Positions 1 to 8,341 of a stretch of 8,341 nt of DNA are shown piece by piece. The stretch is from a virus. Its lineage: Duplodnaviria; Heunggongvirae; Uroviricota; Caudoviricetes. The notes under the pieces are model-generated. The model searched no databases. It saw only the letters and a list, made by a program, of their open reading frames with translations, and was not told the DNA's origin. The stretch lies in the IMG/VR virus record IMGVR_UViG_2681813265_000006, one strand, 5' to 3'. Positions within the stretch are counted from its first letter, which is position 1. Each line of letters begins with the position of its first letter. The translations under genes were made by a program, and so were the position numbers.

Positions 1-37
1 AACAAATGGTAGTGTCCGCTATTGCCAGTACACCTCA
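1..37. repeat. IR-L: left arm of a 37-bp perfect inverted repeat (partner at 8298..8334)
   Basis: Positions 1..37 are the exact reverse complement of 8298..8334. Each arm carries 5 nt of leader, an ATG and the first 10 codons (MVVSAIASTP) of an ORF reading into the window. Identity breaks at 38 / 8297; the arms may extend beyond the window edges. Confidence 0.9.
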
Positions 38-122
38 GGGTATAAGGGGTTATGGCCACCGGACTACCAAACGGCTGCCAGCCCTCTTTCAGTTTATGTG
101 TCAGCTTTTCCGCAAGATCTGA
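6..122 (+). pseudogene. Short ORF (38 aa, MVVSAIASTPQGIRGYGH...) that shares its first 10 codons with gene A (8099..8329) and then diverges; probably a truncated or recombinant remnant
   Basis: ATG at 6..8 inside IR-L, stop TGA at 120..122. Divergence from the gene A sequence begins exactly at the IR boundary (codon 11). Followed by a 12-bp perfect palindrome GGCGGCGCCGCC at 124..135. Confidence 0.3.
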
Positions 123-357
123 CGGCGGCGCCGCCCTGACAACATCATAGTGTTTAAATGCCATGGTTCTTTCCACCATCTGAAAAATAATTCTTTAAAA
201 TACCTGACATGTAATACAGAAAAAACACAAAACCATACCTTAAATAAAAACCTGATTATCAAGCAGATATGCATGGATAAACTACAAGACGAGATATAAA
301 CCACCCTGCATTTAAATAAACAATAAACAACATCAGAAAAATAATTCTGCTCTATGG

Positions 358-424: not shown

Positions 425-760
425 ATGAAGTGGATTGTGATTGATACAGTTATCCAGCCATCATGCGGAATATCTTTTTCAGTCATATGGAGTAAAATAA
501 AATTAATAATCTGGTATCAATCGGATGCTTTCTTACCTCCTGAAAGTATATTTACACTGACTCACACAGGCATCATGCTCAATAACAAAGTGCTACCTGT
601 AACCATTTACAACGTAGTACCATTCAATAAAACATTCTGGAATTCAATCAAAAATAGCCAGGAATGCCCTACAAATACAGATAACGTATTGAATGAATGC
701 TTTAATAACCGTTGCACTCTGCAAATATGTCCTTATGGACTAAAACAACAAAGTCCATAA
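425..760 (+). CDS. Hypothetical 111-aa Cys-containing protein encoded in an AT-rich island, on the strand opposite to all phage genes
   Basis: 111-codon open frame in markedly AT-rich DNA (where stop codons are frequent), with a good SD (AAGGA, 6-nt spacer) and a candidate promoter. No family recognised by eye. Confidence 0.35.
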
Positions 761-794: not shown

Positions 795-816
795 CAGCCC
801 CTCCGGAGAGGGGCTG
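795..816 (-). terminator. Perfect 9-bp-stem hairpin (CAGCCCCTC-cgga-GAGGGGCTG), terminator-like for minus-strand transcripts
   Basis: Stem 795..803 / 808..816, loop CGGA. On the minus strand it is followed by a U-rich stretch (GUUUAUAUUGAUUUUG); on the plus strand no U tract follows. The 3' arm is the first bases of repeat R2 copy A. Confidence 0.35.
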
Positions 817-1022
817 GAGAGTGGCGCTATGTGCCATTGCATGGTGCCGGGTGCCTCCCGGTGAATTCAGTACCAGCACCTGAATCCGCGATTATCCCAT
901 ATACCTACTCGCTGATTGCCCCTCCGCACAGGGGGATTCACCATGCCAGTTTCTTTTAACAAACTCCCCGCAAACCAGACAACAGTCAACCGCCTGAATT
1001 GTGAAGTATTTAAAAATTTCTC
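811..1022. repeat. R2 copy A: ~212-bp direct repeat (partner at 2136..2347)
   Basis: Offset of exactly 1325 bp between copies. One mismatch in the first ~175 bp, about 6 mismatches in the last ~40 bp. Contains hairpins and a conserved SD + ATG (943). Confidence 0.85.
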
Positions 1023-1207
1023 CCGCTAACTGATACCCGGCTAACAGTCTGGCGTTTTCTTTTTCAGCAACGGGAAAGCAACAACCACCACACCCGCCAC
1101 CAGCACACCGTCAGCCAGCACTGACATTATCCGGCTGCTGCAATGCCATTCACAAAAACAGTAAGCAATCACTTTTTACCGTAACAGGTGATAATCCAGA
1201 TATGTAT

Positions 1208-1534
1208 CTACCCCAGATGAGTAATCCGAAGTTCATCCATACCACAGGTCCTGGCTATTCTGTTGTACTCCTGAACAAGAGCAAATAATTCTGAATTAGC
1301 AACCATGAACTCATCGCAAACCCTCTGTATAGCATCACTATTCAGAATAATAACGTCTCTTCCCGAAAGACGATCAGGAGTACAGAACAAAACTGTCAAA
1401 CGGCTGAAGGCCTTTGCTCGTGCTGCATTGACTATATCAATACGCTGCCTAAGGATGAAACACCCCGACGCCTCATCAATATTCACTCTACCCACACCAT
1501 ATGAATGATAAATATTTAATGCTGAAAAAACCAT
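1208..1534 (-). CDS. Hypothetical protein, 108 aa from ATG 1534 (117 aa if the TTG at 1561 is used); unrecognised cargo ORF downstream of tRNA copy 1
   Basis: Longest ORF in the 650-bp block (1023..1671) that is absent from the second module copy. Weak SD. The TTG-start version has a hydrophobic N-terminus (IECLLYGLMVFSALNIY). No family recognised. Confidence 0.3.
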   Translation of the reverse strand: MVFSALNIYHSYGVGRVNIDEASGCFILRQRIDIVNAARAKAFSRLTVLFCTPDRLSGRDVIILNSDAIQRVCDEFMVANSELFALVQEYNRIARTCGMDELRITHLG

Positions 1535-1671
1535 TAGACCGTATAACAAACACTCAATCAATACTTAACAGAACTTTTATTTTTGACAAACATAAAATAT
1601 TTTCAACAATATCCTGAGCCAGGTATATTTCAGTATAAGGCTCTGCCGGAAGGAATCTGGAAGAATGAATA

Positions 1672-1748
1672 TGGCGCGCTGTACTGGATTCGAACCAGTG
1701 ACCGATTGCTTAGAAGGCAATTGCTCTGTCCGGCTGAGCTAACAACGC
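1672..1748 (-). tRNA. argO: tRNA-Arg (anticodon UCU), copy 1
   Basis: Reverse complement folds as a cloverleaf: acceptor GCGUUGU/ACAGCGC (U4-G69 wobble), anticodon loop CUUCUAA, T-loop UUCGAAU, 3' GCCA. Third gene of an ileZ-argN-argO-type cluster as in Stx phages. Confidence 0.85.
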
Positions 1749-1761
1749 TGAATACCGATAA

Positions 1762-1842
1762 TGGACCGCCATCGGGGACCCGCCCCCGCACCAACAACCC
1801 TGTTATCGTGTCGTCTGCTCTTCCTGATAAGCTAATGGCGGT
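1762..1842 (-). pseudogene. Degenerate tRNA-Arg(UCG)-like gene (argN remnant), copy 1
   Basis: The 5' acceptor/D-arm and the 3' acceptor end match the intact copy at 2467..2543, but the central ~35 nt (anticodon arm, variable region and T-loop) are replaced by unrelated sequence. No canonical anticodon stem or T-loop can be drawn. Confidence 0.55.
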
Positions 1843-1848
1843 TTGTGA

Positions 1849-1924
1849 TGGTGGCCCTTGCTGGATTTGAACCAGCGACCTGGCGATTATGAGTCGCTCG
1901 CTCTCACCACTGAGCTAAAGGGCC
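1849..1924 (-). tRNA. ileZ: tRNA-Ile2 (anticodon CAU, ileX-like, lysidine type), copy 1
   Basis: Cloverleaf with anticodon loop CUCAUAA and T-loop UUCAAAU. Near-identical in sequence to E. coli ileX/ileY as I remember them. Identical to copy 2. Confidence 0.85.
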
Positions 1925-1961
1925 GGGAGCAGAATAATAACGGTCCGTAATTAATTCCGCA
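1925..1961 (-). promoter_or_regulatory. Putative promoter of tRNA cluster copy 1
   Basis: Minus strand: -35 TTGCGG (1957..1962), 17-nt spacer, -10 TATTAT (1934..1939), about 8 nt before the tRNA-Ile 5' end. Homologous to 2627..2664 upstream of copy 2. Confidence 0.4.
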
Positions 1962-1962
1962 A

Positions 1963-1987
1963 TAAAAAACCCGCTCGGCGGCGGGTT
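1963..1987 (-). terminator. Duplicate copy of the late terminator tR'
   Basis: Minus-strand hairpin AACCCGC-cgccga-GCGGGUU followed by U6; same sequence as 4193..4217. Confidence 0.7.
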
Positions 1988-2034
1988 GTAGAAACTCTTC
2001 TAACGTCAGGCATAAAACGCCCATAGTTATGACG

Positions 2035-2062
2035 AATTTACCACAGATTCCGGAAAAATCAA
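2035..2062 (-). promoter_or_regulatory. Duplicate copy of the late promoter PR'
   Basis: -35 TTGATT (2057..2062), 16-nt spacer, extended -10 TGGTAAATT (2035..2043). The initial transcribed sequence has AACTAT where the genuine copy has AACGAT. Confidence 0.6.
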
Positions 2063-2135
2063 CCTAGTTACCTTTTTTAACTGCCGCTCAGCCCATGCTT
2101 CTTCAATATCAAACCGAGTCACCAGCGCATCATAA
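2063..2135 (-). pseudogene. Fragment of the Q 3' end (last ~24 codons) fused to R2; remnant from recombination or duplication
   Basis: About 97% identical to 4301..4373 (Q C-terminal codons plus stop region). It lacks the 8-bp tandem duplication present in the intact gene. Homology ends abruptly at 2135/2136 where R2 copy B begins. Confidence 0.8.
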
Positions 2136-2347
2136 GGGCTGGAGAGTGGCGCTATGTGCCATTGCATGATGCCGGGTGCCTCCCGGTGAATTCAGTACCA
2201 GCACCTGAATCCGCGATTATCCCATATACCTACTCGCTGATTGCCCCTCCGCACAGGGGGATTCACCATGCCAGTTTCTTTTAACAAACTCCCCGCAAAA
2301 CAGACAACTGTCAACCGTCTGAATTGTGAGACATTTAAAAAAAAGGC
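2136..2347. repeat. R2 copy B (partner at 811..1022)
   Basis: See copy A. Begins at the junction with the Q fragment; its other end overlaps the tRNA-cluster terminator. Confidence 0.85.
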
Positions 2348-2362
2348 CCGCAAAAGCGAGCC
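2337..2362 (-). terminator. Rho-independent terminator downstream of tRNA cluster copy 2
   Basis: Minus-strand RNA GGCUCGC-UUUU-GCGGGCC (7-bp stem with one U-G pair) followed by U8. The plus-strand equivalent would have a C-A mismatch and no U tract. Confidence 0.7.
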
Positions 2363-2376
2363 AGGGAAAATAAGTG

Positions 2377-2453
2377 TGGCGCGTTGTACTGGATTCGAAC
2401 CAGTGACCGATTGCTTAGAAGGCAATTGCTCTGTCCGGCTGAGCTAACAACGC
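2377..2453 (-). tRNA. argO: tRNA-Arg (anticodon UCU), copy 2
   Basis: Same cloverleaf as copy 1 but with U4-A69 Watson-Crick instead of U4-G69. Confidence 0.85.
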
Positions 2454-2466
2454 ATGATGCAGATAA

Positions 2467-2543
2467 TGGACCGCCATCGGGGACTTGAACCCCGCGCAGC
2501 CAGCTTCGAAGGCTGGCGCTCTTTCCTGATGAGCTAATGGCGG
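2467..2543 (-). tRNA. argN: tRNA-Arg (anticodon UCG), intact
   Basis: Acceptor CCGCCAU/AUGGCGG, D-stem GCUC/GAGC, anticodon stem CCAGC/GCUGG with loop CUUCGAA, T-arm CGGGG-UUCAAGU-CCCCG, 3' UCCA. Confidence 0.8.
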
Positions 2544-2550
2544 TATGTGA

Positions 2551-2626
2551 TGGTGGCCCTTGCTGGATTTGAACCAGCGACCTGGCGATTATGAGTCGCT
2601 CGCTCTCACCACTGAGCTAAAGGGCC
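2551..2626 (-). tRNA. ileZ: tRNA-Ile2 (anticodon CAU, ileX-like), copy 2
   Basis: Identical to 1849..1924. Confidence 0.85.
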
Positions 2627-2664
2627 GGGAGCCGCATAATAACGACGCGTAATTAATTCTTCAA
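2627..2664 (-). promoter_or_regulatory. Putative promoter of tRNA cluster copy 2
   Basis: -35 TTGAAG (2659..2664), 17-nt spacer, -10 TATTAT (2636..2641); directly abuts the methyltransferase stop codon. Confidence 0.4.
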
Positions 2665-2666
2665 TA

Positions 2667-3725
2667 TCATCCGTTCTGGCTGACTAAATCCTGTACTTCC
2701 CGAACCGTCTGCTCAAAACGTTCAGTCTCCAGCTCAACGCCAATTGCACGACGCCCGAGCGCCAGTGCCGCTTTCACTGTCGAACCCAACCCCATGAAAA
2801 AATCTGCAATCAGGTCACCCGGACGACTGCTAGCGCTGATTATCTGCTGCAGCATTTCTGCCGGTTTTTCGCACGGATGTTTCCCGGGATAGAACTGCAC
2901 CGGTTTATGCGTCCACACATCGGTATACGGCACCTGCACCGTCACGCCAAAATACCGCCGCAGATGTTTATATTCACTCAGCAGCTCCGCATACTGCCGG
3001 TTCAGTGAGGTATACGTATCCACCAGCTGGTGGTGGAGCTTTTCCAGTTCACCACGCCGATGCTTCTCTTCTGCCACCCGGGCAAACAGCGCCTGTAATT
3101 TCAGATAATCGCTTTCATTCGGCAACTGCCACTGACCGGCACTGAACCAGTGCGACACCATGTTTTTCTTTCCTGTGGCATCTGCAATCTGTTTTGCCGT
3201 TATCCCCAGGGCAGCTCGCGCATCACGAAAGTAAGAAATCAGCGGGGCCATCACATGCTGTTTCAGTGCACTGCCCTTCGCCGCATACCCGGCATCTTTC
3301 GGACGATACGGCCCCTGATAATGTTCCGCGAACAGAATGCGCTCTGTGGCGGGGAAATACGCCCGCAGGCTTTCCTTGTTGCATCCGTTCCAGCGTCCGG
3401 ACGGCTTCGCCCAGATAATATGGTTCAGCACACTGAAGCGTTCACGCATCATGATTTCGATATCAGATGCCAGGCGATGACCACAGAACAGGTAAAGACT
3501 TCCGGCAGGTTTCAGCACCCGCCAGAACTGCGCCAGACACTGGTCCAGCCACTTCAGGTAATCATCGTCGCCCTTCCACTGGTTATCCCAGCCCTCAGGC
3601 TTCACTTTAAAGTACGGCGGGTCCGTGACTATCAGGTCAACAGAATTTTCGGGTAACGACCGGATAAATTCCAGGCAGTCGGCGTTGATTAACTCACAAC
3701 TGGATATTTTTACAGTATTAAGCAT
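2667..3725 (-). CDS. Orphan DNA N6-adenine methyltransferase, beta class, prophage-encoded (352 aa)
   Basis: DLIVTDPPYF (motif IV, DPPY) near the N-terminus and FFMGLGSTVKAALALGRRAIGVE (FxGxG motif I, SAM-binding) near the C-terminus; the order IV then I indicates the beta class. The central region has an HTH-like segment (GITAKQIADATGKK...). No restriction endonuclease partner is present in the window. Confidence 0.8.
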   Translation of the reverse strand: MLNTVKISSCELINADCLEFIRSLPENSVDLIVTDPPYFKVKPEGWDNQWKGDDDYLKWLDQCLAQFWRVLKPAGSLYLFCGHRLASDIEIMMRERFSVLNHIIWAKPSGRWNGCNKESLRAYFPATERILFAEHYQGPYRPKDAGYAAKGSALKQHVMAPLISYFRDARAALGITAKQIADATGKKNMVSHWFSAGQWQLPNESDYLKLQALFARVAEEKHRRGELEKLHHQLVDTYTSLNRQYAELLSEYKHLRRYFGVTVQVPYTDVWTHKPVQFYPGKHPCEKPAEMLQQIISASSRPGDLIADFFMGLGSTVKAALALGRRAIGVELETERFEQTVREVQDLVSQNG

Positions 3726-3818
3726 GGATCATTAAGCCTGTCTCTGATAGGCTCATTCTGCTTTTGCGCAAAGCAGTGGGCCTGAGGTTTGCTTGTGAAC
3801 CCAACGCATGAGCAGATG

Positions 3819-3847
3819 GCTGGTGGGTGCCCCTAACACCCACCAGC
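3819..3847. other. Perfect 11-bp-stem palindromic hairpin (GCTGGTGGGTG-cccctaa-CACCCACCAGC) in the methyltransferase leader
   Basis: Seen directly in the sequence; no U tract on either side. A second near-perfect palindrome lies at 3758..3776 (CTGCTTTtgcgcAAAGCAG). Confidence 0.6.
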
Positions 3848-3860
3848 CGCCCATTTACCA

Positions 3861-3889
3861 CAAATAAAAAAGCCTTCACTGCGGAAGGC
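3861..3889 (-). terminator. Rho-independent terminator downstream of the small HTH ORF
   Basis: Minus-strand RNA GCCUUC-CGCAGU-GAAGGC followed by UUUUUUAUUU. The HTH ORF stop codon lies inside the hairpin. Confidence 0.6.
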
Positions 3890-4073
3890 GTCTGTAACAA
3901 CCGAACTGATAGTCTGCCAGACCCGCCATAACCAGCTGGGTCAGTATTAACTGGCAGCGTTCGCGTGAAAGGTAAGTATTCTGCGCTATCTCCCCGACTG
4001 TCGCCGGTTCGGTAACGCTTAATTCATTAAACACCACTCTGGCGGTTTCTGTCATATCCTGCTGTTTTAGCAT
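3876..4073 (-). CDS. Small (65 aa) putative winged-helix / HTH DNA-binding protein
   Basis: Good SD (AAGGA, 6-nt spacer). The segment TVGEIAQNTYLSRERCQLILTQLVMAGLADYQ resembles the recognition helix and wing of small wHTH regulators. First gene of the HTH-methyltransferase cassette. Confidence 0.45.
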   Translation of the reverse strand: MLKQQDMTETARVVFNELSVTEPATVGEIAQNTYLSRERCQLILTQLVMAGLADYQFGCYRRLPQ

Positions 4074-4192
4074 GTCTTTTCCTTTTCCGGTTAACGTGAC
4101 ACACCAATAACTCTTGTCGAAAAAGCCAGCAAGCTGAAAGACAGGTATTCACCGCCACCAGCGCGTTTACTGTACTGACGCGATTTCAGTCA

Positions 4193-4217
4193 TAAAAAAC
4201 CCGCTCGGCGGCGGGTT
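4193..4217 (-). terminator. tR' late terminator ending a short PR' transcript of about 65 nt
   Basis: Minus-strand hairpin AACCCGC-cgccga-GCGGGUU followed by UUUUUUAU, about 40 nt downstream of the predicted PR' start. Confidence 0.75.
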
Positions 4218-4252
4218 GTAGAAACTCTTCTAACGTCAGGCATAAAACGCCC

Positions 4253-4292
4253 ATCGTTATGACGAATTTACCACAGATTCCGGAAAAATCAA
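4253..4292 (-). promoter_or_regulatory. Late promoter PR' with sigma70-dependent pause element (qut region)
   Basis: -35 TTGATT (4287..4292), 16-nt spacer, extended -10 TGGTAAATT (4265..4273), then AACGAT at about +1..+6 (4253..4258). This is the same -10-like pause-inducing hexamer as in lambda PR'. Located immediately downstream of the Q stop codon. Confidence 0.7.
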
Positions 4293-4297
4293 CCTTG

Positions 4298-5119
4298 TTA
4301 CCTAGTTACCTTTTTTAACTGCCGCTCAGCCCATGCTTCTTCAATATCAAACCGGGTCACCAGCGCATCATAAAATTTCTTAACTGTTTTTTCCCATGAC
4401 GCGCGTGTTATCTGGTTTGTCACCTCGCATATAGCATTAAATGCCTCCGTTGATGGTAGTCTTTCATAGCCACGACCACCACAACGCTGGCAGTCTCTGA
4501 TAACAGGCATACCACGTTTTACCGACTCTTCACGATGAATGGCGACACCACGCCCACGGCAATCCTTACAGGCGGTGGAAACCTCACCCTTTCCGCCACA
4601 CTCCGGACAGGCAACTTTTACCACCTCCCTGACTTTTTTCCATTCTTCCCAGTAAGACGGATACACACCTTTCGTACACTTTGCCCATACCGGCGGCTTA
4701 CCATCCGGATACTGGATCTTGTTTGTAAAAACCTCGCTTTCAATAAATTTTTTTCCGTGACAGCAGGGGCACTGTTTTTTGCTCGCCGCGCTACGGGCAT
4801 AATCTTCAAACGCATACGAAGCCATAATACGCATCACTGCCGGTTTTATTTCTGCCGGGAGTTTTCTTAACGCCGCCACGCGATCACACCGACTGAGTGC
4901 ATATTCTGTCAGCAATTCTGTTGCCCGCTCTCTGTCATTCATACTAATGCCCATTTTCCCAAGGAACGCAGAAACCCCCATCTCAGCCCGATTCTGTGTC
5001 ATGCCCTGCGCGGCCATCACATCAGTGATACTCAGCGCATCTTTCGACGTTGAGGCCGATGCATCAGTCAGGCCGGGGGATTTTGGGGAGTAGTATTTCG
5101 GTAAATCTTCCAGTTTCAT
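4298..5119 (-). CDS. Q: Late-gene antiterminator Q (273 aa)
   Basis: Position immediately upstream of a lambda-like PR'/tR' unit. Several CxxC pairs (CPCC, CPEC, CKDC, CQRC) consistent with Q-family zinc fingers. ATGA overlap with rusA. Confidence 0.8.
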   Translation of the reverse strand: MKLEDLPKYYSPKSPGLTDASASTSKDALSITDVMAAQGMTQNRAEMGVSAFLGKMGISMNDRERATELLTEYALSRCDRVAALRKLPAEIKPAVMRIMASYAFEDYARSAASKKQCPCCHGKKFIESEVFTNKIQYPDGKPPVWAKCTKGVYPSYWEEWKKVREVVKVACPECGGKGEVSTACKDCRGRGVAIHREESVKRGMPVIRDCQRCGGRGYERLPSTEAFNAICEVTNQITRASWEKTVKKFYDALVTRFDIEEAWAERQLKKVTR

Positions 5120-5496
5120 TTTTTGACCTGCCCTTCAAGCATTATGGGATAAATCTTCACCCCCAGACGTCCACCAGATACTGGCTGAGCACGAACGATA
5201 TTGATTTCATCAAACTGCTCATCGTCCATTAGCAACCCCGCATGCGTCAGCGCATCCAGCGGCGCTTTCAGAATATTGTCCAGGTCACGGCGGCGCTTAT
5301 CCGGTGGTTCTGCAATAATTTTTATTGCCAACCTTCCGGACAGGCTTAATTTCAGCCGCTGCTGGCGAACAATAAGCGCCACTGCCCGGCGATAACGCTC
5401 CCCGGCTTTTGATACAAAATATGTGCTGCCACGACGACGCCAGTAAGTGTTCACCGTCGGCGGGTAAGGTAAAACAAATTCTATGCGCTCGGTCAT
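5116..5496 (-). CDS. rusA: Holliday-junction resolvase RusA (126 aa)
   Basis: N-terminus MTERIEFVLPYPPTVNTYW and the acidic catalytic region RRRDLDNILKAPLDAL...LLMDDEQ match RusA. Its start abuts the stop of the upstream ORF (TAAATG). Confidence 0.85.
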   Translation of the reverse strand: MTERIEFVLPYPPTVNTYWRRRGSTYFVSKAGERYRRAVALIVRQQRLKLSLSGRLAIKIIAEPPDKRRRDLDNILKAPLDALTHAGLLMDDEQFDEINIVRAQPVSGGRLGVKIYPIMLEGQVKK

Positions 5497-6555
5497 TTAT
5501 GCTTTCCACTTCAGAACACCCGAATTTCTCGCGTGCATTAAAAAACGAATCAGCAACAACAGCTGACTGCCGTGTTTCTCTTCAAAATCTTTTACTCCGG
5601 CATGTAGTTCGTTACGGCATTTACGGCATAACGGAATAACAAACAAATCATCAGCCTTTGTTCCCATCCCTCCCAGTCCATGACCAATGATGTGATGCGG
5701 ATCATCTGCCTGATTGCCACACGTCATGCATTTCTGCGTTTTTACCCAGCGCGTGTATACAGGCATCTCTTCCCGTTGTGATTTCTGGCGCTGGAGATAC
5801 TGAGCCGGTGACTCCGGATCAACGGCAATGCTGACCACCGTCTTTTCCTGTGGTGGGTTCTGTTGCTGGTGGACGTGAGGCAGTAACGCAATATTTTTTG
5901 TGCGCTGCTTCAGTATGCTGGTGGCTGTCTGCTCTCCCGGTATGATGTCGCTTTCACTGTACACAGAGCGAATTTTTTCCGCACGCAACCCCAGCGAACG
6001 ACGTAATACCGCTTCCGGTAGCGCGTCCGCCACCTGATTGCGGACCGCCCACCAGGATAATTCAGCCAGAGATAATTCACGCTCCTGCGTACCGCTTATT
6101 GCGTGACCGATGACGTCAATCATCCATGCTGACAGGTTTTGATGAGCAAGTTGCTCGAGTGATTCGGATGTCTGGTCACGCAGCTGGTTGTCGCAGTGCC
6201 AGCACAACACCATTGCGCCGGTACCATAACGGTGAATGACGGTTTCGCTGTGATGATAATCGCCGTGTGGCCACTGGCAGGATTTAATATGGCGCAACAG
6301 CCAGTCAGACAATGCACCAGCACCACCAGCAGCACGAATCACCCGTGCGTTACTGAAAAACGGCAGCAATGTTTTGTCTTCCACCAGCGGCTGGCGAGCG
6401 GCAGGAACGACCCCGGACGGCAGATTACGCATGCTTTTTGGTTCCGGCTCCACCAGTATTCTGCCGTTATGGAATGCTGACATTGATTCACGGCCTGGCT
6501 TAACGATAACCAGACCGAGTTCCGGTACCAGAACAGGTCGAAGTAATACCCGCAC
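5497..6555 (-). CDS. Prophage nin-region protein, YdfU-like (DUF968) with a C-terminal Cys/His-rich HNH-like motif
   Basis: Synteny hokD-rem-(this ORF)-Q as in the Qin prophage. C-terminal CMTCGNQADDPHH...CRKCRNELH resembles NinG/HNH zinc motifs. The start is ambiguous: GTG 6555 has GGAGG 4 nt upstream; the alternative ATG at 6483 gives 328 aa. Confidence 0.55.
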   Translation of the reverse strand: MRVLLRPVLVPELGLVIVKPGRESMSAFHNGRILVEPEPKSMRNLPSGVVPAARQPLVEDKTLLPFFSNARVIRAAGGAGALSDWLLRHIKSCQWPHGDYHHSETVIHRYGTGAMVLCWHCDNQLRDQTSESLEQLAHQNLSAWMIDVIGHAISGTQERELSLAELSWWAVRNQVADALPEAVLRRSLGLRAEKIRSVYSESDIIPGEQTATSILKQRTKNIALLPHVHQQQNPPQEKTVVSIAVDPESPAQYLQRQKSQREEMPVYTRWVKTQKCMTCGNQADDPHHIIGHGLGGMGTKADDLFVIPLCRKCRNELHAGVKDFEEKHGSQLLLLIRFLMHARNSGVLKWKA

Positions 6556-6630
6556 ATTACCTCCAGATCCGTTGCTGGAATGTGCGGGACGGACGCGTTG
6601 GCCGTTCGGAGTAAGGGAGCCTGACGGAGA

Positions 6631-6912
6631 TTATCCAGTGACGGTAGTCGAGGCTAAGGGCTTTTTTAACCTCGCATCCGCGCCTGCGGTAACACTGAAT
6701 GAGCCATTCGGCCTGTTCTTCAGTGCATGGGGGATGCTGGTACCAATCAGATTTAAATGCGTGAGAGCGCCGCCCGTGCCTGCTGGCAAAGACGGCTGAA
6801 TTATCAGAATTGTGTAGTCTGGAAGGCAGTGGCTGACAATAGCGCCATTCTCAACGCGCACAGTATAGAGGCCATCTTCACTAAAAATTTCACGTAATTC
6901 TTCGATTTTCAT
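6631..6912 (-). CDS. Rem-like small ORF (93 aa) at the position of Qin rem
   Basis: ATG at 6912 preceded by GGAAGGA with an 8-nt spacer. The N-terminal 25 residues look protein-like; the remainder is low-complexity and overlaps a long stop-free alternative frame (see findings). Confidence 0.4.
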   Translation of the reverse strand: MKIEELREIFSEDGLYTVRVENGAIVSHCLPDYTILIIQPSLPAGTGGALTHLNLIGTSIPHALKNRPNGSFSVTAGADARLKKPLASTTVTG

Positions 6913-7033
6913 CAACAGAATCCTTCCAGATAAATAGCACTCCCCTGTTCGGGGTCCATCCCTCTTCTCCCTGCGCGCTACTTAAGTATTTTTGATTCTA
7001 TTCCGGCACCATCTAAAACTTCAAACGCGTTGA

Positions 7034-7064
7034 AAATAAAAACAAAAACCCGCCGAAGCGGGTT
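7034..7064 (-). terminator. Rho-independent terminator of the hok transcript
   Basis: Minus-strand AACCCGC-UUCG-GCGGGUU followed by UUUUGUUUUUAUUUU. A GAAA-tetraloop stem-loop (plus coordinates 7104..7125) lies just after the hok stop. Confidence 0.75.
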
Positions 7065-7132
7065 AAGTGTGGGTGCATTGAGGATGCCTGACCCATCAGA
7101 GGTGGCGAGGGATTTCTCCCCCGCCTGGTCTC

Positions 7133-7288
7133 TTACTCCTCAGGTTCGTAAGCTGTGAAGACAGCGACCTCCGTCTGGCCGGTTCGAATTCGTACCTCGC
7201 AGAGGTCTTTCCTCGTTACCAGTGCCGTCACTATGACGGTTAAACAGATGACGATCAGGGCGATTAACATCGCCTTTTGCTGCTTCAT
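7133..7288 (-). CDS. hokD: Hok-family type I toxin, HokD/RelF-like (51 aa)
   Basis: Translation MKQQKAMLIALIVICLTVIVTALVTRKDLCEVRIRTGQTEVAVFTAYEPEE matches HokD as I remember it. SD AAGGAG lies 9 nt upstream. The ORF-track version (7133..7345) adds an in-frame 19-codon extension. Confidence 0.85.
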   Translation of the reverse strand: MKQQKAMLIALIVICLTVIVTALVTRKDLCEVRIRTGQTEVAVFTAYEPEE

Positions 7289-7499
7289 AGCCTGCTTCTC
7301 CTTGCCTTTCGGCACGTAAGAGGCTAACCTAGATTTGCCGTTCATAGATTGAGCCTCAGATTAATGTTAAGCGTCTTGCCGGACGCGTAATGTTAACTGG
7401 GGCTTTTCTCTATCTGCCTTTTGGTGTTCATGCCTGAGACAGATAGCCTCAAGCACCCGCTGCAATTCTACTTAACTCTCCTTTTCCCGCAAACCGTTT

Positions 7500-7583
7500 T
7501 TATCCCCAGCGGCAAATCGAATACACCACCAGCGCCACCGCCATCGCAATTCCTACCGTTGTTAATGCTTCAGGCCAGGTCAT
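7500..7583 (-). CDS. 27-aa hydrophobic peptide ([27 protein letters not shown]), translationally coupled to gene C
   Basis: Its ATG overlaps the gene C stop (ATGA). A single predicted transmembrane helix. Below the ORF-track size cutoff, found by manual translation. Confidence 0.4.
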
Positions 7584-7924
7584 CGTAAAATATCCTCCAC
7601 GCTTATCAGTCCGTTCCGCTCCAGATAACTCATCGCCTTATCCGGTAATTTGCAGTCTGGCTTCGCTTTCCTCAGTTGCCAGGTTAACTGCTTTACCAGC
7701 ATGGTTAACTCATCGACCAGACGCTGATATCCCACTGGTTTGTATTCATGCAATTTACCGGCTGGCTCTGCTGCCAGCGATACCAGTGCGATTTCCAGAA
7801 CAGCAATATCCATCTTATATGTGCGGATGATGTCATGGTCGATTGTGCCCGGTATGCACAGTCTCTGTGCTTCAATAGTCTCCTCTGCGTGAGCTATTAA
7901 CTGCTCTCTGGTAAAAGTCGTCAT
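7580..7924 (-). CDS. Hypothetical nin-region protein C (114 aa), paralogous to gene B
   Basis: Its ATG overlaps the gene B stop (ATGA). Shares MTTxTxE at the N-terminus and an A(L)xSLxAEP motif with gene B. Confidence 0.6.
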
Positions 7925-8088
7925 GCCGTAGCCCCTTCTTGATATTTTTCAAACCAGAACACAACCGGCTCTGCTTCCAGCGATGCCAGCGCAATCCGTG
8001 CCAGTTCCATTTGTTCACCACGGGTAAGCCCGTTTTCAAGCGGGTTTTTAATGAACAATTCAATACGTTCTTTGGTAATAGTGGTCAT
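7921..8088 (-). CDS. Hypothetical nin-region protein B (55 aa), short paralog of gene C
   Basis: ATG at 8088 preceded by AAGGAG (6-nt spacer), which overlaps the gene A stop. Translation [55 protein letters not shown]. Missed by the ORF track because it is under 60 aa; the track's 7872..8063 ORF is the wrong frame. Confidence 0.55.
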
Positions 8089-8098
8089 GTGTTACTCC

Positions 8099-8329
8099 TT
8101 AACCCGCAGTGCTTTCAACTGATGAGGGGAACAAAATCTTTTCATCAAACCCTGCATTCATATCATGAACAGCAACACACCAATCCATCGACGAACGATT
8201 ATCAAGAGCCTCCATGATTTCATCCATGCGGCGTAGGTCATACAGGTAAATGCTTTTATCGCCAATGGTGTAAAAGCCAATTTTTTTCGGTGATGGATGA
8301 GGTGTACTGGCAATAGCGGACACTACCAT
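8099..8329 (-). CDS. Hypothetical protein A (at least 76 aa), first gene of the coupled A-B-C-D operon; its start lies within IR-R
   Basis: The ORF reads from the ATG at 8329. There is no in-frame stop in the 4 codons upstream before the window edge, so the true start may lie outside the window. No family recognised. Confidence 0.45.
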   Translation of the reverse strand: MVVSAIASTPHPSPKKIGFYTIGDKSIYLYDLRRMDEIMEALDNRSSMDWCVAVHDMNAGFDEKILFPSSVESTAG

Positions 8330-8334
8330 TTGTT
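8298..8334. repeat. IR-R: right arm of the 37-bp perfect inverted repeat
   Basis: Exact reverse complement of 1..37; contains the ATG (8327..8329, minus strand) of CDS 8099..8329. Confidence 0.9.
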
Positions 8335-8341
8335 CTTTTTT

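Follow-up and report, generated by a model that had tools for sequence, protein, structure and literature searches.

Late-control modules of two Shigella sonnei lambdoid prophage remnants joined head to tail in a single sequence window

The 8,341 nucleotides analysed here (hereafter the window, meaning the whole stretch at its full length) carry the late-control region distal to the antiterminator gene Q in two related versions lying head to tail. The question raised by this arrangement is whether the two versions descend from one another or were brought together from different prophages, and, if the latter, whether the join exists in the organism or only in the contig. A preliminary description of the sequence had recognised two diverged tandem modules at 809-4373 and had left the choice between a hybrid formed from two related late regions of lambdoid type and a tandem duplication of old date that later gained and lost cargo.

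The two modules themselves are readily recovered. BLAST of the window against itself and a repeat finder give three collinear blocks of similarity between module 1 (811-2135) and module 2 (2136-4373), corresponding to the sRNA STnc100 (811-1016 and 2136-2341, 96.6% over 206 nt, E 2e-97), the tRNAs (1659-1964 and 2365-2666, 87.7% with gaps, E 4e-100) and the 3' end of Q with PR' and tR' (1962-2135 and 4192-4373, 94.5%, E 8e-77), the last of these differing by 2 mismatches and one 8-bp indel. Pairwise alignment, which the preliminary description had named as a check, thus finds likeness reaching beyond the tRNA genes into STnc100 and the Q 3' end/PR'/tR' block, and the exact-repeat map gives runs of up to 130 nt common to both halves. 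The identity of 96-100% first stated for the copies is too high, and becomes 88-97% with the 8-bp indel and the degenerate argN included.

Feature calls agree that module 2 is complete and that module 1 opens with a 3' fragment of Q, and place the genes and signals of both on the minus strand. Module 2 is headed by Q_A (4298-5119), a full-length late antiterminator of 273 aa in the Q-lambda family (Pfam Antiterm PF03589, 1.6e-53; PDB 7UBM, of Q-lambda complexes, 3.5e-41, and 4MO1, 3.5e-28). Next to it lies a PR'/tR' unit at 4198-4292, with a -35 at 4292-4287, the -10 TAAATT at 4270-4265, the pause element AACGAT at 4258-4253 and, in a terminator scan, the tR' hairpin and T-run at 4198-4217. 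The assignment of PR' is based on its position and on a comparison of motifs with the lambda sequence; a simple sigma-70 scan of the window did not flag it (8/12 matches). Two features follow that are confined to module 2, a small ORF of 65 aa (3876-4073) with a weak winged-helix match (TrmB, 0.0026) and a 352-aa N6/N4 DNA methyltransferase (2667-3725; Pfam N6_N4_Mtase, E 8e-42), for which the NCBIfam adenine-methyltransferase matches fall below cutoff. The tRNA operon at 2345-2664 has a promoter-like site (2636-2664) and a terminator (2345-2362; terminator scan) and comprises ileZ (CAU, 2551-2626), argN (UCG, 2467-2543, the sole Arg-UCG called in the window) and argO (UCU, 2377-2453), all called by ARAGORN and Rfam. 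This cluster order of CAU, UCG and UCU downstream of Q is found in module 2 and is broken in module 1 by a degenerate argN.

In module 1, the Q_B fragment (2027-2134) consists of the last 24 shared codons and an 11-codon extension, has no start codon of its own and is identical to the 3' end of the complete 284-aa Q in one of the two S. sonnei loci described below (locus B). A Q homologue therefore stands directly upstream of the late leader in module 2, and a Q 3' fragment only in module 1. The PR'/tR' unit at 1968-2062 (-35 TTGATT at 2062-2057, -10 TAAATT at 2040-2035, pause-like AACTAT at 2028-2023, tR' hairpin and T-run at 1968-1987 by terminator scan) is likewise identical to locus B, and matches that of module 2 save for the 8-bp indel, located upstream of the -35, and a single base of the pause element. 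Both modules thus have motif-level matches to a -10-like pause element and an intrinsic terminator. Beyond tR' lie an ileZ-type tRNA(CAU) at 1849-1924 (ARAGORN and Rfam; the homologue is named tRNA-Ile by PGAP), which sits within an 87-nt run identical to module 2, the degenerate argN at 1760-1843 and an argO-type tRNA-Arg(UCU) at 1672-1748 (ARAGORN; Rfam tRNA, 68 bits). The degenerate argN was delimited by alignment with module 2 and is called by neither ARAGORN nor Rfam; its acceptor and T-arm ends are kept and its middle is scrambled, with the anticodon-arm region replaced. With five tRNAs called in the window, both the two PR' units and the two tRNA sets described earlier are present. The remainder of the module up to STnc100 is the previously noted "650-bp unique block" (1017-1658, G+C 0.42), made up of a gene for a DUF3927 small membrane protein (1041-1172; Pfam, E 1.7e-27) and AT-rich DNA without a supported gene; the 117-aa ORF at 1208-1561 has no family match in Pfam or NCBIfam. 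This block occurs in S. sonnei locus B and in the same module of E. coli 042 and others.

The element called R2 in the preliminary description is the Rfam sRNA STnc100 (RF02076), and both copies, again on the minus strand, score above its gathering threshold of 47 bits. The copy at 786-975 reaches 132.4 bits over the full model with the terminator stem aligned (hairpin at 795-816 in the terminator scan). In the copy at 2136-2300 (Rfam match 2125-2300, 103.7 bits), 11 unaligned bases stand in place of model positions 176-200, which hold the 9-bp terminator stem. The first copy therefore has an intact Rho-independent terminator and the second does not, its stem having been removed by the junction between the modules. 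STnc100 is a known prophage sRNA adjoining sialic acid esterase-holin-lysozyme genes (bioRxiv 10.64898/2026.05.13.724894).

Outside the modules, an iraM-like anti-adapter gene of 111 aa lies on the plus strand at 425-760 (NCBIfam PRK09919 IraM, 162 bits against a cutoff of 121; its homologue in E. coli strain 131 is annotated IraM), and the 5' fragment of a DUF1737 gene (1-164, minus strand; the N-terminus of a nanS-p-type esterase) is cut by an IS600 insertion; S. sonnei locus B has a called gene with Pfam DUF1737 in the corresponding position. The window begins with the terminal 37 nt of the IS600 right inverted repeat (IRR; 1-37, minus strand), from an element running leftwards out of the window, and ends with the terminal 44 nt of the IRR side of a second, inverted copy (8298-8341, plus strand) that runs out to the right; positions 1-37 are a perfect inverted repeat of 8298-8334. 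Both ends equal the IRR of an element in two S. sonnei reference records that is 99% identical to IS600 of E. coli, which is annotated there as "IS3-like element IS600 family transposase."

It is clear from comparison with these references, a check likewise proposed in the preliminary description, that each module has its own separate and distant counterpart. Positions 2135-8341 match five S. sonnei records without a mismatch (100%), and the locus concerned, locus A, is a defective lambda-like remnant on the ompW side, in the order IS600, hok/sok, DUF968, RusA, Q_A, PR', tR', methyltransferase, ileZ-argN-argO, STnc100, with its IS600 at the same place as window positions 8298-8341. Positions 1-2134 match two other S. 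sonnei records, again with 0 mismatches (100%), and these represent a second defective lambda-like remnant near cmoA/cmoB, locus B, in the order Q_B, PR', tR', ileZ, degenerate argN, argO, DUF3927, STnc100, IraM, the cut DUF1737 gene, IS600. HE616528.1, among the reference records, is S. sonnei 53G. In the four complete genomes that carry both loci, 662-780 kb separate them and their relative orientation is the same, and the contigs retrieved, which came from among the longest, all have the loci normal and separate. The two module types also stand alone in 1,179 and 1,699 of 5,426 complete E. coli genomes.

We therefore read the window as the late-control modules of two different defective S. 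sonnei lambdoid prophages, fused head to tail, and give this a probability of roughly 0.93. The hybrid proposed in the preliminary description is borne out in that each half matches a locus of its own at 100%; since, in addition, the junction is unique, the modules would have diverged in separate phage lineages and been joined very recently, with no substitution accumulated in either half since. On this reading, the differences between the modules were inherited from the two lineages and are not the outcome of a duplication. The modules are not each other's closest relatives (88-97% mutual identity vs 100% to the separate loci), and the junction does not join the end of one unit to its own start, its partners being the locus-A STnc100 and the locus-B Q.

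Three-way comparison with both reference loci puts the junction between positions 2134 and 2135, where the minus strand reads ...CTCCAGCCCT from locus A on the left, directly followed by TATGATGCGC... from locus B on the right; reference locus A continues past this breakpoint as ...CAGCCCTCTCCGGAGGGGCTTTT. The preliminary description was right that a Q fragment abuts R2, and its position of 2135/2136 is one base off. The join is blunt, with no microhomology and no base common to both sides, and the nearby base 2117, 17 nt away, is specific to locus B. Lost at the join are the STnc100 terminator of locus A and the first 249 codons of Q_B. A 301-nt junction probe has no single-piece crossing match in the 5,426 complete E. 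coli genomes, where its matches come in two pieces that correspond to the normal order of Q, tRNA and R2. The junction 29-mer was not found in species-representative genomes, viral contigs or metagenome contigs, an 18-mer gave 17 and 19 matches, all in unrelated taxa and at about the chance rate, and the 46-aa ORF across the junction is not on record.

That this junction was present in the source DNA seems to us only slightly better than an even bet. Counting against it is that, without a second sequence carrying it, the junction rests on one window. The strongest rival explanation accepts the same composite origin and holds that the contig is chimeric, whether from the library, from amplification, from the merging of contigs or closing of gaps, or from an error in the consensus, and that loci A and B are ordinary and separate in the isolate; we take this seriously, at less than even odds. 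It would account for a junction seen in no other collection searched, for two halves that are exactly standard S. sonnei sequence, for a blunt join lacking microhomology, and for a window that ends 37 and 44 nt into IS600 copies, as a short-read contig would. The region is also hard to assemble because of the exact repeats that the halves have in common. False joins in an assembly graph, however, come via common k-mers; since the two sides of the join have none, repeat-driven misassembly cannot yield it, and the graph would presumably have needed junction-spanning reads. Chimeric reads that arise at random are seldom numerous enough to be assembled, and would have to compete with the true continuations. 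The exact-repeat map further places the breakpoints off the repeat boundaries, where de Bruijn contigs of neither native locus would end, so plain concatenation of two contigs is unlikely too.

The geometry of the join weighs on both sides of this question. In the reference layouts it is deletion-type and spans the 662-780 kb that separate the surroundings of ompW from those of cmoA/B, an interval which we take, from the E. coli map, to contain the replication terminus and essential genes; a simple deletion would lose the terminus and be inviable, and inversion is set aside since the loci lie in direct orientation. The lack of a simple viable rearrangement favours a chimeric contig, and if the event is real it must instead have copied locus B. 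The most workable route would be a copy-type ectopic event anchored in IS600, an anchoring that the sequence context suggests. A break near the STnc100 terminator of locus A would be repaired from an IS600 202 bp downstream in this lineage (references with a locus A identical to the window already have a correctly oriented IS600 202 bp past the breakpoint); that end would invade the co-oriented IS600 of locus B and copy outward through 2.1 kb of locus B; and the copied end would then be sealed to the other without homology. E. coli-type cells are without classical end joining, so such blunt joins are rare. The IS600 ends suggest that the window is a whole short-read contig, in which case, with 2.1 kb of locus B duplicated, a contig break would be expected at the junction; this expectation clashes with the copy model unless native locus B was lost too or the assembly was long-read. 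The window by itself cannot choose between an IS600-anchored ectopic copy event and a chimeric assembly.

A variant of this route is one-ended transposition of IS600 with a surrogate end, by which 2.1 kb of prophage DNA (PR'/tR' unit, two tRNA genes, DUF3927, STnc100 and iraM) would have been carried from one remnant into the STnc100 terminator of the other; we consider this unlikely. One-ended (surrogate-end) transposition is reportedly known for the IS3-family element IS911 from work by Polard et al. in 1994. The moved block would resemble that case in being bounded by IS600 on one side and by IRR-like sequence on the other, the B-side junction end agreeing with the IS600 IRR at 8/13 positions (top 0.6% of window positions). 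The resemblance is weak (4% over 20 nt, 3% over 28 nt), and unlike IS911 the canonical terminal TG is missing here; the far side of IS600, where a target-site duplication would be expected, lies outside the window. If this reading were true, IS elements could shuttle phage regulatory and tRNA/sRNA cargo between Shigella prophages.

It is very improbable that the source strain was lysogenised by a lambdoid lineage natively carrying two PR'/tRNA/STnc100 modules. The mosaic cassettes, in which the methyltransferase, an intact or degenerate argN and DUF3927 come in varied combinations, would allow for such a phage, but no phage record covers at least 80% of the window, the junction is in no viral contig, and both flanks agree at every base with the degraded S. 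sonnei remnants delimited by IS600. Least credible of all is that the Q-distal module was duplicated in tandem, in place and long ago, with later divergence, cargo gain and loss and argN decay: the collinear head-to-tail block order and the duplication-like Q fragment opening module 1 recall one, but each copy matches a different distant locus better than its neighbour, the supposedly later changes (methyltransferase block, DUF3927 block, degenerate argN) are already present where the loci stand alone and each occur in over 1,000 E. coli genomes, a structure of that age would be expected in relatives and is present in none searched, and the separate S. sonnei loci, with a complete Q_B and a complete locus-A STnc100 terminator, cannot derive from the fusion.

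If the fusion is real, it would make a small natural experiment, with an sRNA deprived of its terminator and an orphan PR' served by a heterologous, near-identical Q. Each module may work as in lambda, with a constitutive PR' and RNA polymerase halted at tR' unless modified by Q; downstream of tR' lie rare-codon tRNAs, predicted to have their own promoter, and STnc100, an sRNA of the Hfq type. Q_A and Q_B are 96% identical, and because their last 130 residues are the same and the two PR' are nearly so, Q_A should act on the orphan PR'_B as well as on PR'_A. The locus-A STnc100, being without its terminator, would be expected to read on for about 170 nt as far as the locus-B tR'. The join may also exemplify IS600-anchored movement of prophage cargo. 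The biological weight is small, mosaic prophage remnants being routine in Shigella, and there is a caution in the locus, as paralogous prophage modules side by side in a contig can mimic an ancient duplication when they result from a one-off fusion or chimera.

Every part of the window is already of a known kind (Q-lambda-type late leader, Stx-phage-type tRNAs, STnc100, IraM, IS600). Module 2 resembles the lambda late operon in having the promoter right after Q, TAAATT followed after 6 nt by AACGAT-GGG, and an intrinsic terminator next. Unlike in lambda, Q_A is extended by an internal insertion of about 70 aa that carries CxxC zinc ribbons, the leader, at about 70 nt between the -10 and the T-run of tR', is much shorter than 6S, and the unit occurs twice in the window, the second time without its own Q. 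The Q-distal moron region of Stx and other lambdoid phages has the same order, with ileZ-argN-argO, a DNA methyltransferase and STnc100/PasD, there standing upstream of stx or a nanS-p esterase, and records of Stx2a phages match positions 918-4217, with "DNA methylase," "tRNA-Arg x2" and stx under the match; the window differs in lacking stx, in its esterase gene cut by IS600, in one degenerate argN and in one lost STnc100 terminator. Phage mEp460_ev081, considered as a second double module from its "antitermination protein Q (x2)," was rejected, the extra "Q" being a mis-named DUF968 gene. Rearrangements known between prophages go through stretches of homology or copies of an IS, unlike the join here, which is blunt, non-homologous and seen once. 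In its wider setting, the window is like the mosaic and recombinant lambdoid prophages of E. coli and Shigella and the genome decay that IS elements drive in Shigella, with two co-resident related remnants, bounded by IS600, and cassettes shuffled among more than 1,000 genomes.

Each half of the window has a stand-alone counterpart in Shigella sonnei. Exact-sequence look-up of the Q protein (273 aa) of module 2, the late module at 2136-4373, and of the IraM-like protein to the left of module 1 (811-2135) returned one shared set of complete genomes of approximately 4.8-5.0 Mb, in which the two proteins lie at different sites; one member of this set, HE616528.1, is S. sonnei 53G. Positions 2135-8341 match locus A, a prophage remnant adjoining ompW whose Q-proximal side is bounded by an IS600, with 0 mismatches in five genomes, and positions 1-2134 match locus B, a remnant adjoining cmoA/cmoB, with 0 mismatches in two genomes and one difference in seven others. 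Judged from sequence, the window thus unites two related lambdoid late regions in a hybrid, which was one of two readings offered in the preliminary description. In three S. sonnei genomes (locus copies L006, L009 and L010, 53G among them), locus A carries an extra 250 bp at window position 6824/6825, in the Rem/hok-proximal region, and these genomes have no IS600 downstream of STnc100_A (suffixes _A and _B denote copies from locus A and locus B).

The halves meet in a blunt join at 2134/2135, where STnc100_A abuts a 3' fragment of Q_B. On the minus strand the junction reads CTCTCCAGCCCT followed directly by TATGATGCGCTGG. Native locus A passes across the breakpoint from CAGCCCT into CTCCGGAGGGGCTTTTCTG, the locus-A tail beginning CTCCGGAGGGGC, and native locus B passes from AAGAAATTC into TATGATGCG, AAATTC directly preceding TATGATG there; no bases are shared across the window's join. 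What was lost is the 9-bp terminator stem of STnc100_A, a gene that runs into its normal terminator in stand-alone locus A, and all of Q_B save the last 24 shared codons and an 11-codon extension. No single-piece alignment crosses the junction in 5,426 complete E. coli genomes, and every phage record covers less than 80% of the window. The junction 29-mer GCCACTCTCCAGCCCTTATGATGCGCTGG is absent from species-representative genomes, IMG/VR and JGI metagenomes, and an 18-mer finds matches solely in unrelated taxa, at the rate expected by chance.

We put the probability that this junction is real at about 0.55. That it is instead a chimera, and so an artefact, is a substantial possibility short of an even chance, given that the junction has been sighted only once. 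In the four returned genomes with both loci, the breakpoints lie 662, 668, 726 and 780 kb apart (by arithmetic on the coordinates), and the order and orientation in all four make the join a deletion-type junction; such a deletion in the reference layouts would cost the cell the terminus region lying between ompW and cmoA/B, a loss that, judging by the E. coli map, it could not survive. Had the event been of the copy type, 38-2134 would be present twice, and a short-read contig would be expected to end at the junction. Against a chimera, false joins by graph assemblers need shared k-mers, of which this junction has none. Exact repeats common to both loci do exist (130, 87, 69, 63, 55, 40 and 33 nt), but the breakpoints are not at their boundaries, so neither mis-resolution of a repeat nor abutment of two native contigs explains the join. 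A real junction can, moreover, be accounted for by a workable single-event mechanism.

That mechanism involves IS600. The same end of IS600 (IRR) closes the window at both sides, the two being inverted relative to one another and measuring 37 nt (left) and 44 nt (right); 1-37 forms a perfect 37-nt inverted repeat with 8298-8334 (of 8341), and the IS600 copies point outward. The window therefore spans precisely the DNA between two IS600 copies, and could be a complete short-read contig broken at IS copies. Where locus A of a reference genome matches the window without any difference, an IS600 stands 202 bp past the breakpoint, co-oriented with the one ending locus B, which makes an IS600-anchored repair route possible. 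After a break near the STnc100_A terminator, repair would begin with invasion of the IS600 in locus B, 2.1 kb of locus B would be copied outward, and the other end would be sealed without homology. One-ended IS600 transposition would be a variant of this route: on the locus-B side, the 13 nt next to the join (TATGATGCGCTGG; window 2110-2134, minus strand) match the IS600 IRR (TGAGGTGTACTGG) at 8 positions, placing them in the top 0.6% of window positions. This end is without the terminal TG and the match fades with length; the resemblance may mark a surrogate transposase end or may be fortuitous.

The anatomy of the two modules had been correctly described at the outset, as self-BLAST blocks, tRNA calls, STnc100 and tR' hairpins agree, and the element then termed R2 is the Rfam sRNA family STnc100 (786-975, 132 bits; 2125-2300, 104 bits). 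Three direct, collinear self-BLAST blocks link the modules: 811-1016 with 2136-2341 (96.6%, E 2e-97), 1659-1964 with 2365-2666 (87.7% with gaps) and 1962-2135 with 4192-4373 (94.5%, comprising 2 mismatches and one 8-bp indel). Similarity therefore extends beyond the tRNA genes, since STnc100 and the Q 3' end/PR'/tR' region are also alike. ARAGORN calls five tRNA genes, all on the minus strand: tRNA-CAU (ileZ) at 1849-1924 and 2551-2626, tRNA-Arg-UCU (argO) at 1672-1748 and 2377-2453, and tRNA-Arg-UCG (argN) at 2467-2543 only. The module-1 argN, which keeps both ends with its middle replaced, is called by neither ARAGORN nor Rfam. A promoter-like site precedes ileZ (2636-2664) and a terminator follows argO (2345-2362). 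The sole polymorphism relative to most S. sonnei locus-B sequences is at 1880, within the module-1 ileZ: with C at this site, as in the window and two genomes, ileZ_B and ileZ_A are identical, and the T carried by five genomes is a substitution within the tRNA gene. One S. sonnei genome (CP022672.1, locus copy L011, 12641-13976) has an insertion of approximately 1.3 kb in the locus-A argN, corresponding to window 2480-2492, with a 13-bp target duplication and ends (CATAAGCGCTAACTTAAGGGTTG) that we take to be those of IS186.

The alternative reading in the preliminary description, an old tandem duplication with divergence and later gain and loss of cargo, is excluded: each copy has a closer relative than the other copy, there are 0 substitutions between either half and its stand-alone locus, and the methyltransferase block, the DUF3927 block and the degenerate argN all pre-exist in the stand-alone loci. 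With at least 80% of the query covered in one piece, the module-1 type occurs in 1,179 of the 5,426 E. coli genomes (e.g., E. coli 042 at 98.9%) and the module-2 type in 1,699, and E. coli strain 131 has another cassette combination, the methyltransferase followed by a module-1-type tRNA set. These combinations, together with the stand-alone loci, place the origin of the divergence among phage lineages.

Other elements lie on either side of the junction. Between DUF3927 and argO, the AT-rich region 1173-1658 (G+C of approximately 0.42, measured for 1017-1658) is without annotation in RefSeq E. coli and contains an internal terminator-like hairpin (1354-1372) and a 117-aa ORF with no family match. 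A prophage-borne iraM, encoding an anti-adapter that stabilises RpoS, scores above the NCBIfam cutoff at 425-760 (plus strand), between STnc100_B and the IS600-cut esterase gene. In the locus-A half, a hok/sok-type type I toxin-antitoxin module (7133-7458, minus strand) combines an Rfam sok match (7283-7458, 112 bits) with a 70-aa mok/hok ORF that it overlaps; in strain 131 of E. coli the annotation is hokD.

Q_A is a member of the Q-lambda family (PDB 7UBM, 3.5e-41; 4MO1, 3.5e-28; Pfam Antiterm) and has an inserted CxxC segment. Q_B is complete in stand-alone locus B (284 aa, 96% identical to Q_A); an 8-bp deletion (TAACAAGG; 2064-2092 vs. 4290-4330) removes the Q_A stop codon and lengthens Q by 11 residues, and the extended frame runs through the PR' -35 and -10. 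Only two differences separate PR'_B from PR'_A, namely this 8-bp indel, which lies upstream of the -35, and AACTAT where PR'_A has AACGAT. The last 130 residues of Q_A and Q_B are the same; from these sequences, PR'_B should respond to Q_A. In the fused arrangement transcription of STnc100_A should continue as far as tR'_B. Since IS600 interrupts the esterase gene at the left end, no lysis genes are driven by either PR' unit inside this segment. Every component is of a type already described. The architecture shows no sign of being selected or of recurring, and the join is either a chimera or a recent event that happened once. Directly 3' of Q_A come TTGATT, 16 nt, (TGg)TAAATT, 6 nt and AACGAT-GGG, followed after approximately 35 nt by a hairpin and T-run, and terminator-like hairpins occupy the expected tR' positions (1968-1987 and 4198-4217), an arrangement that, by analogy with lambda, would yield a short terminated RNA from PR' unless Q modifies the polymerase. 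The layout of the unit after Q is the same as that of lambda PR' with its pause-inducing element, as given in the lambda record.
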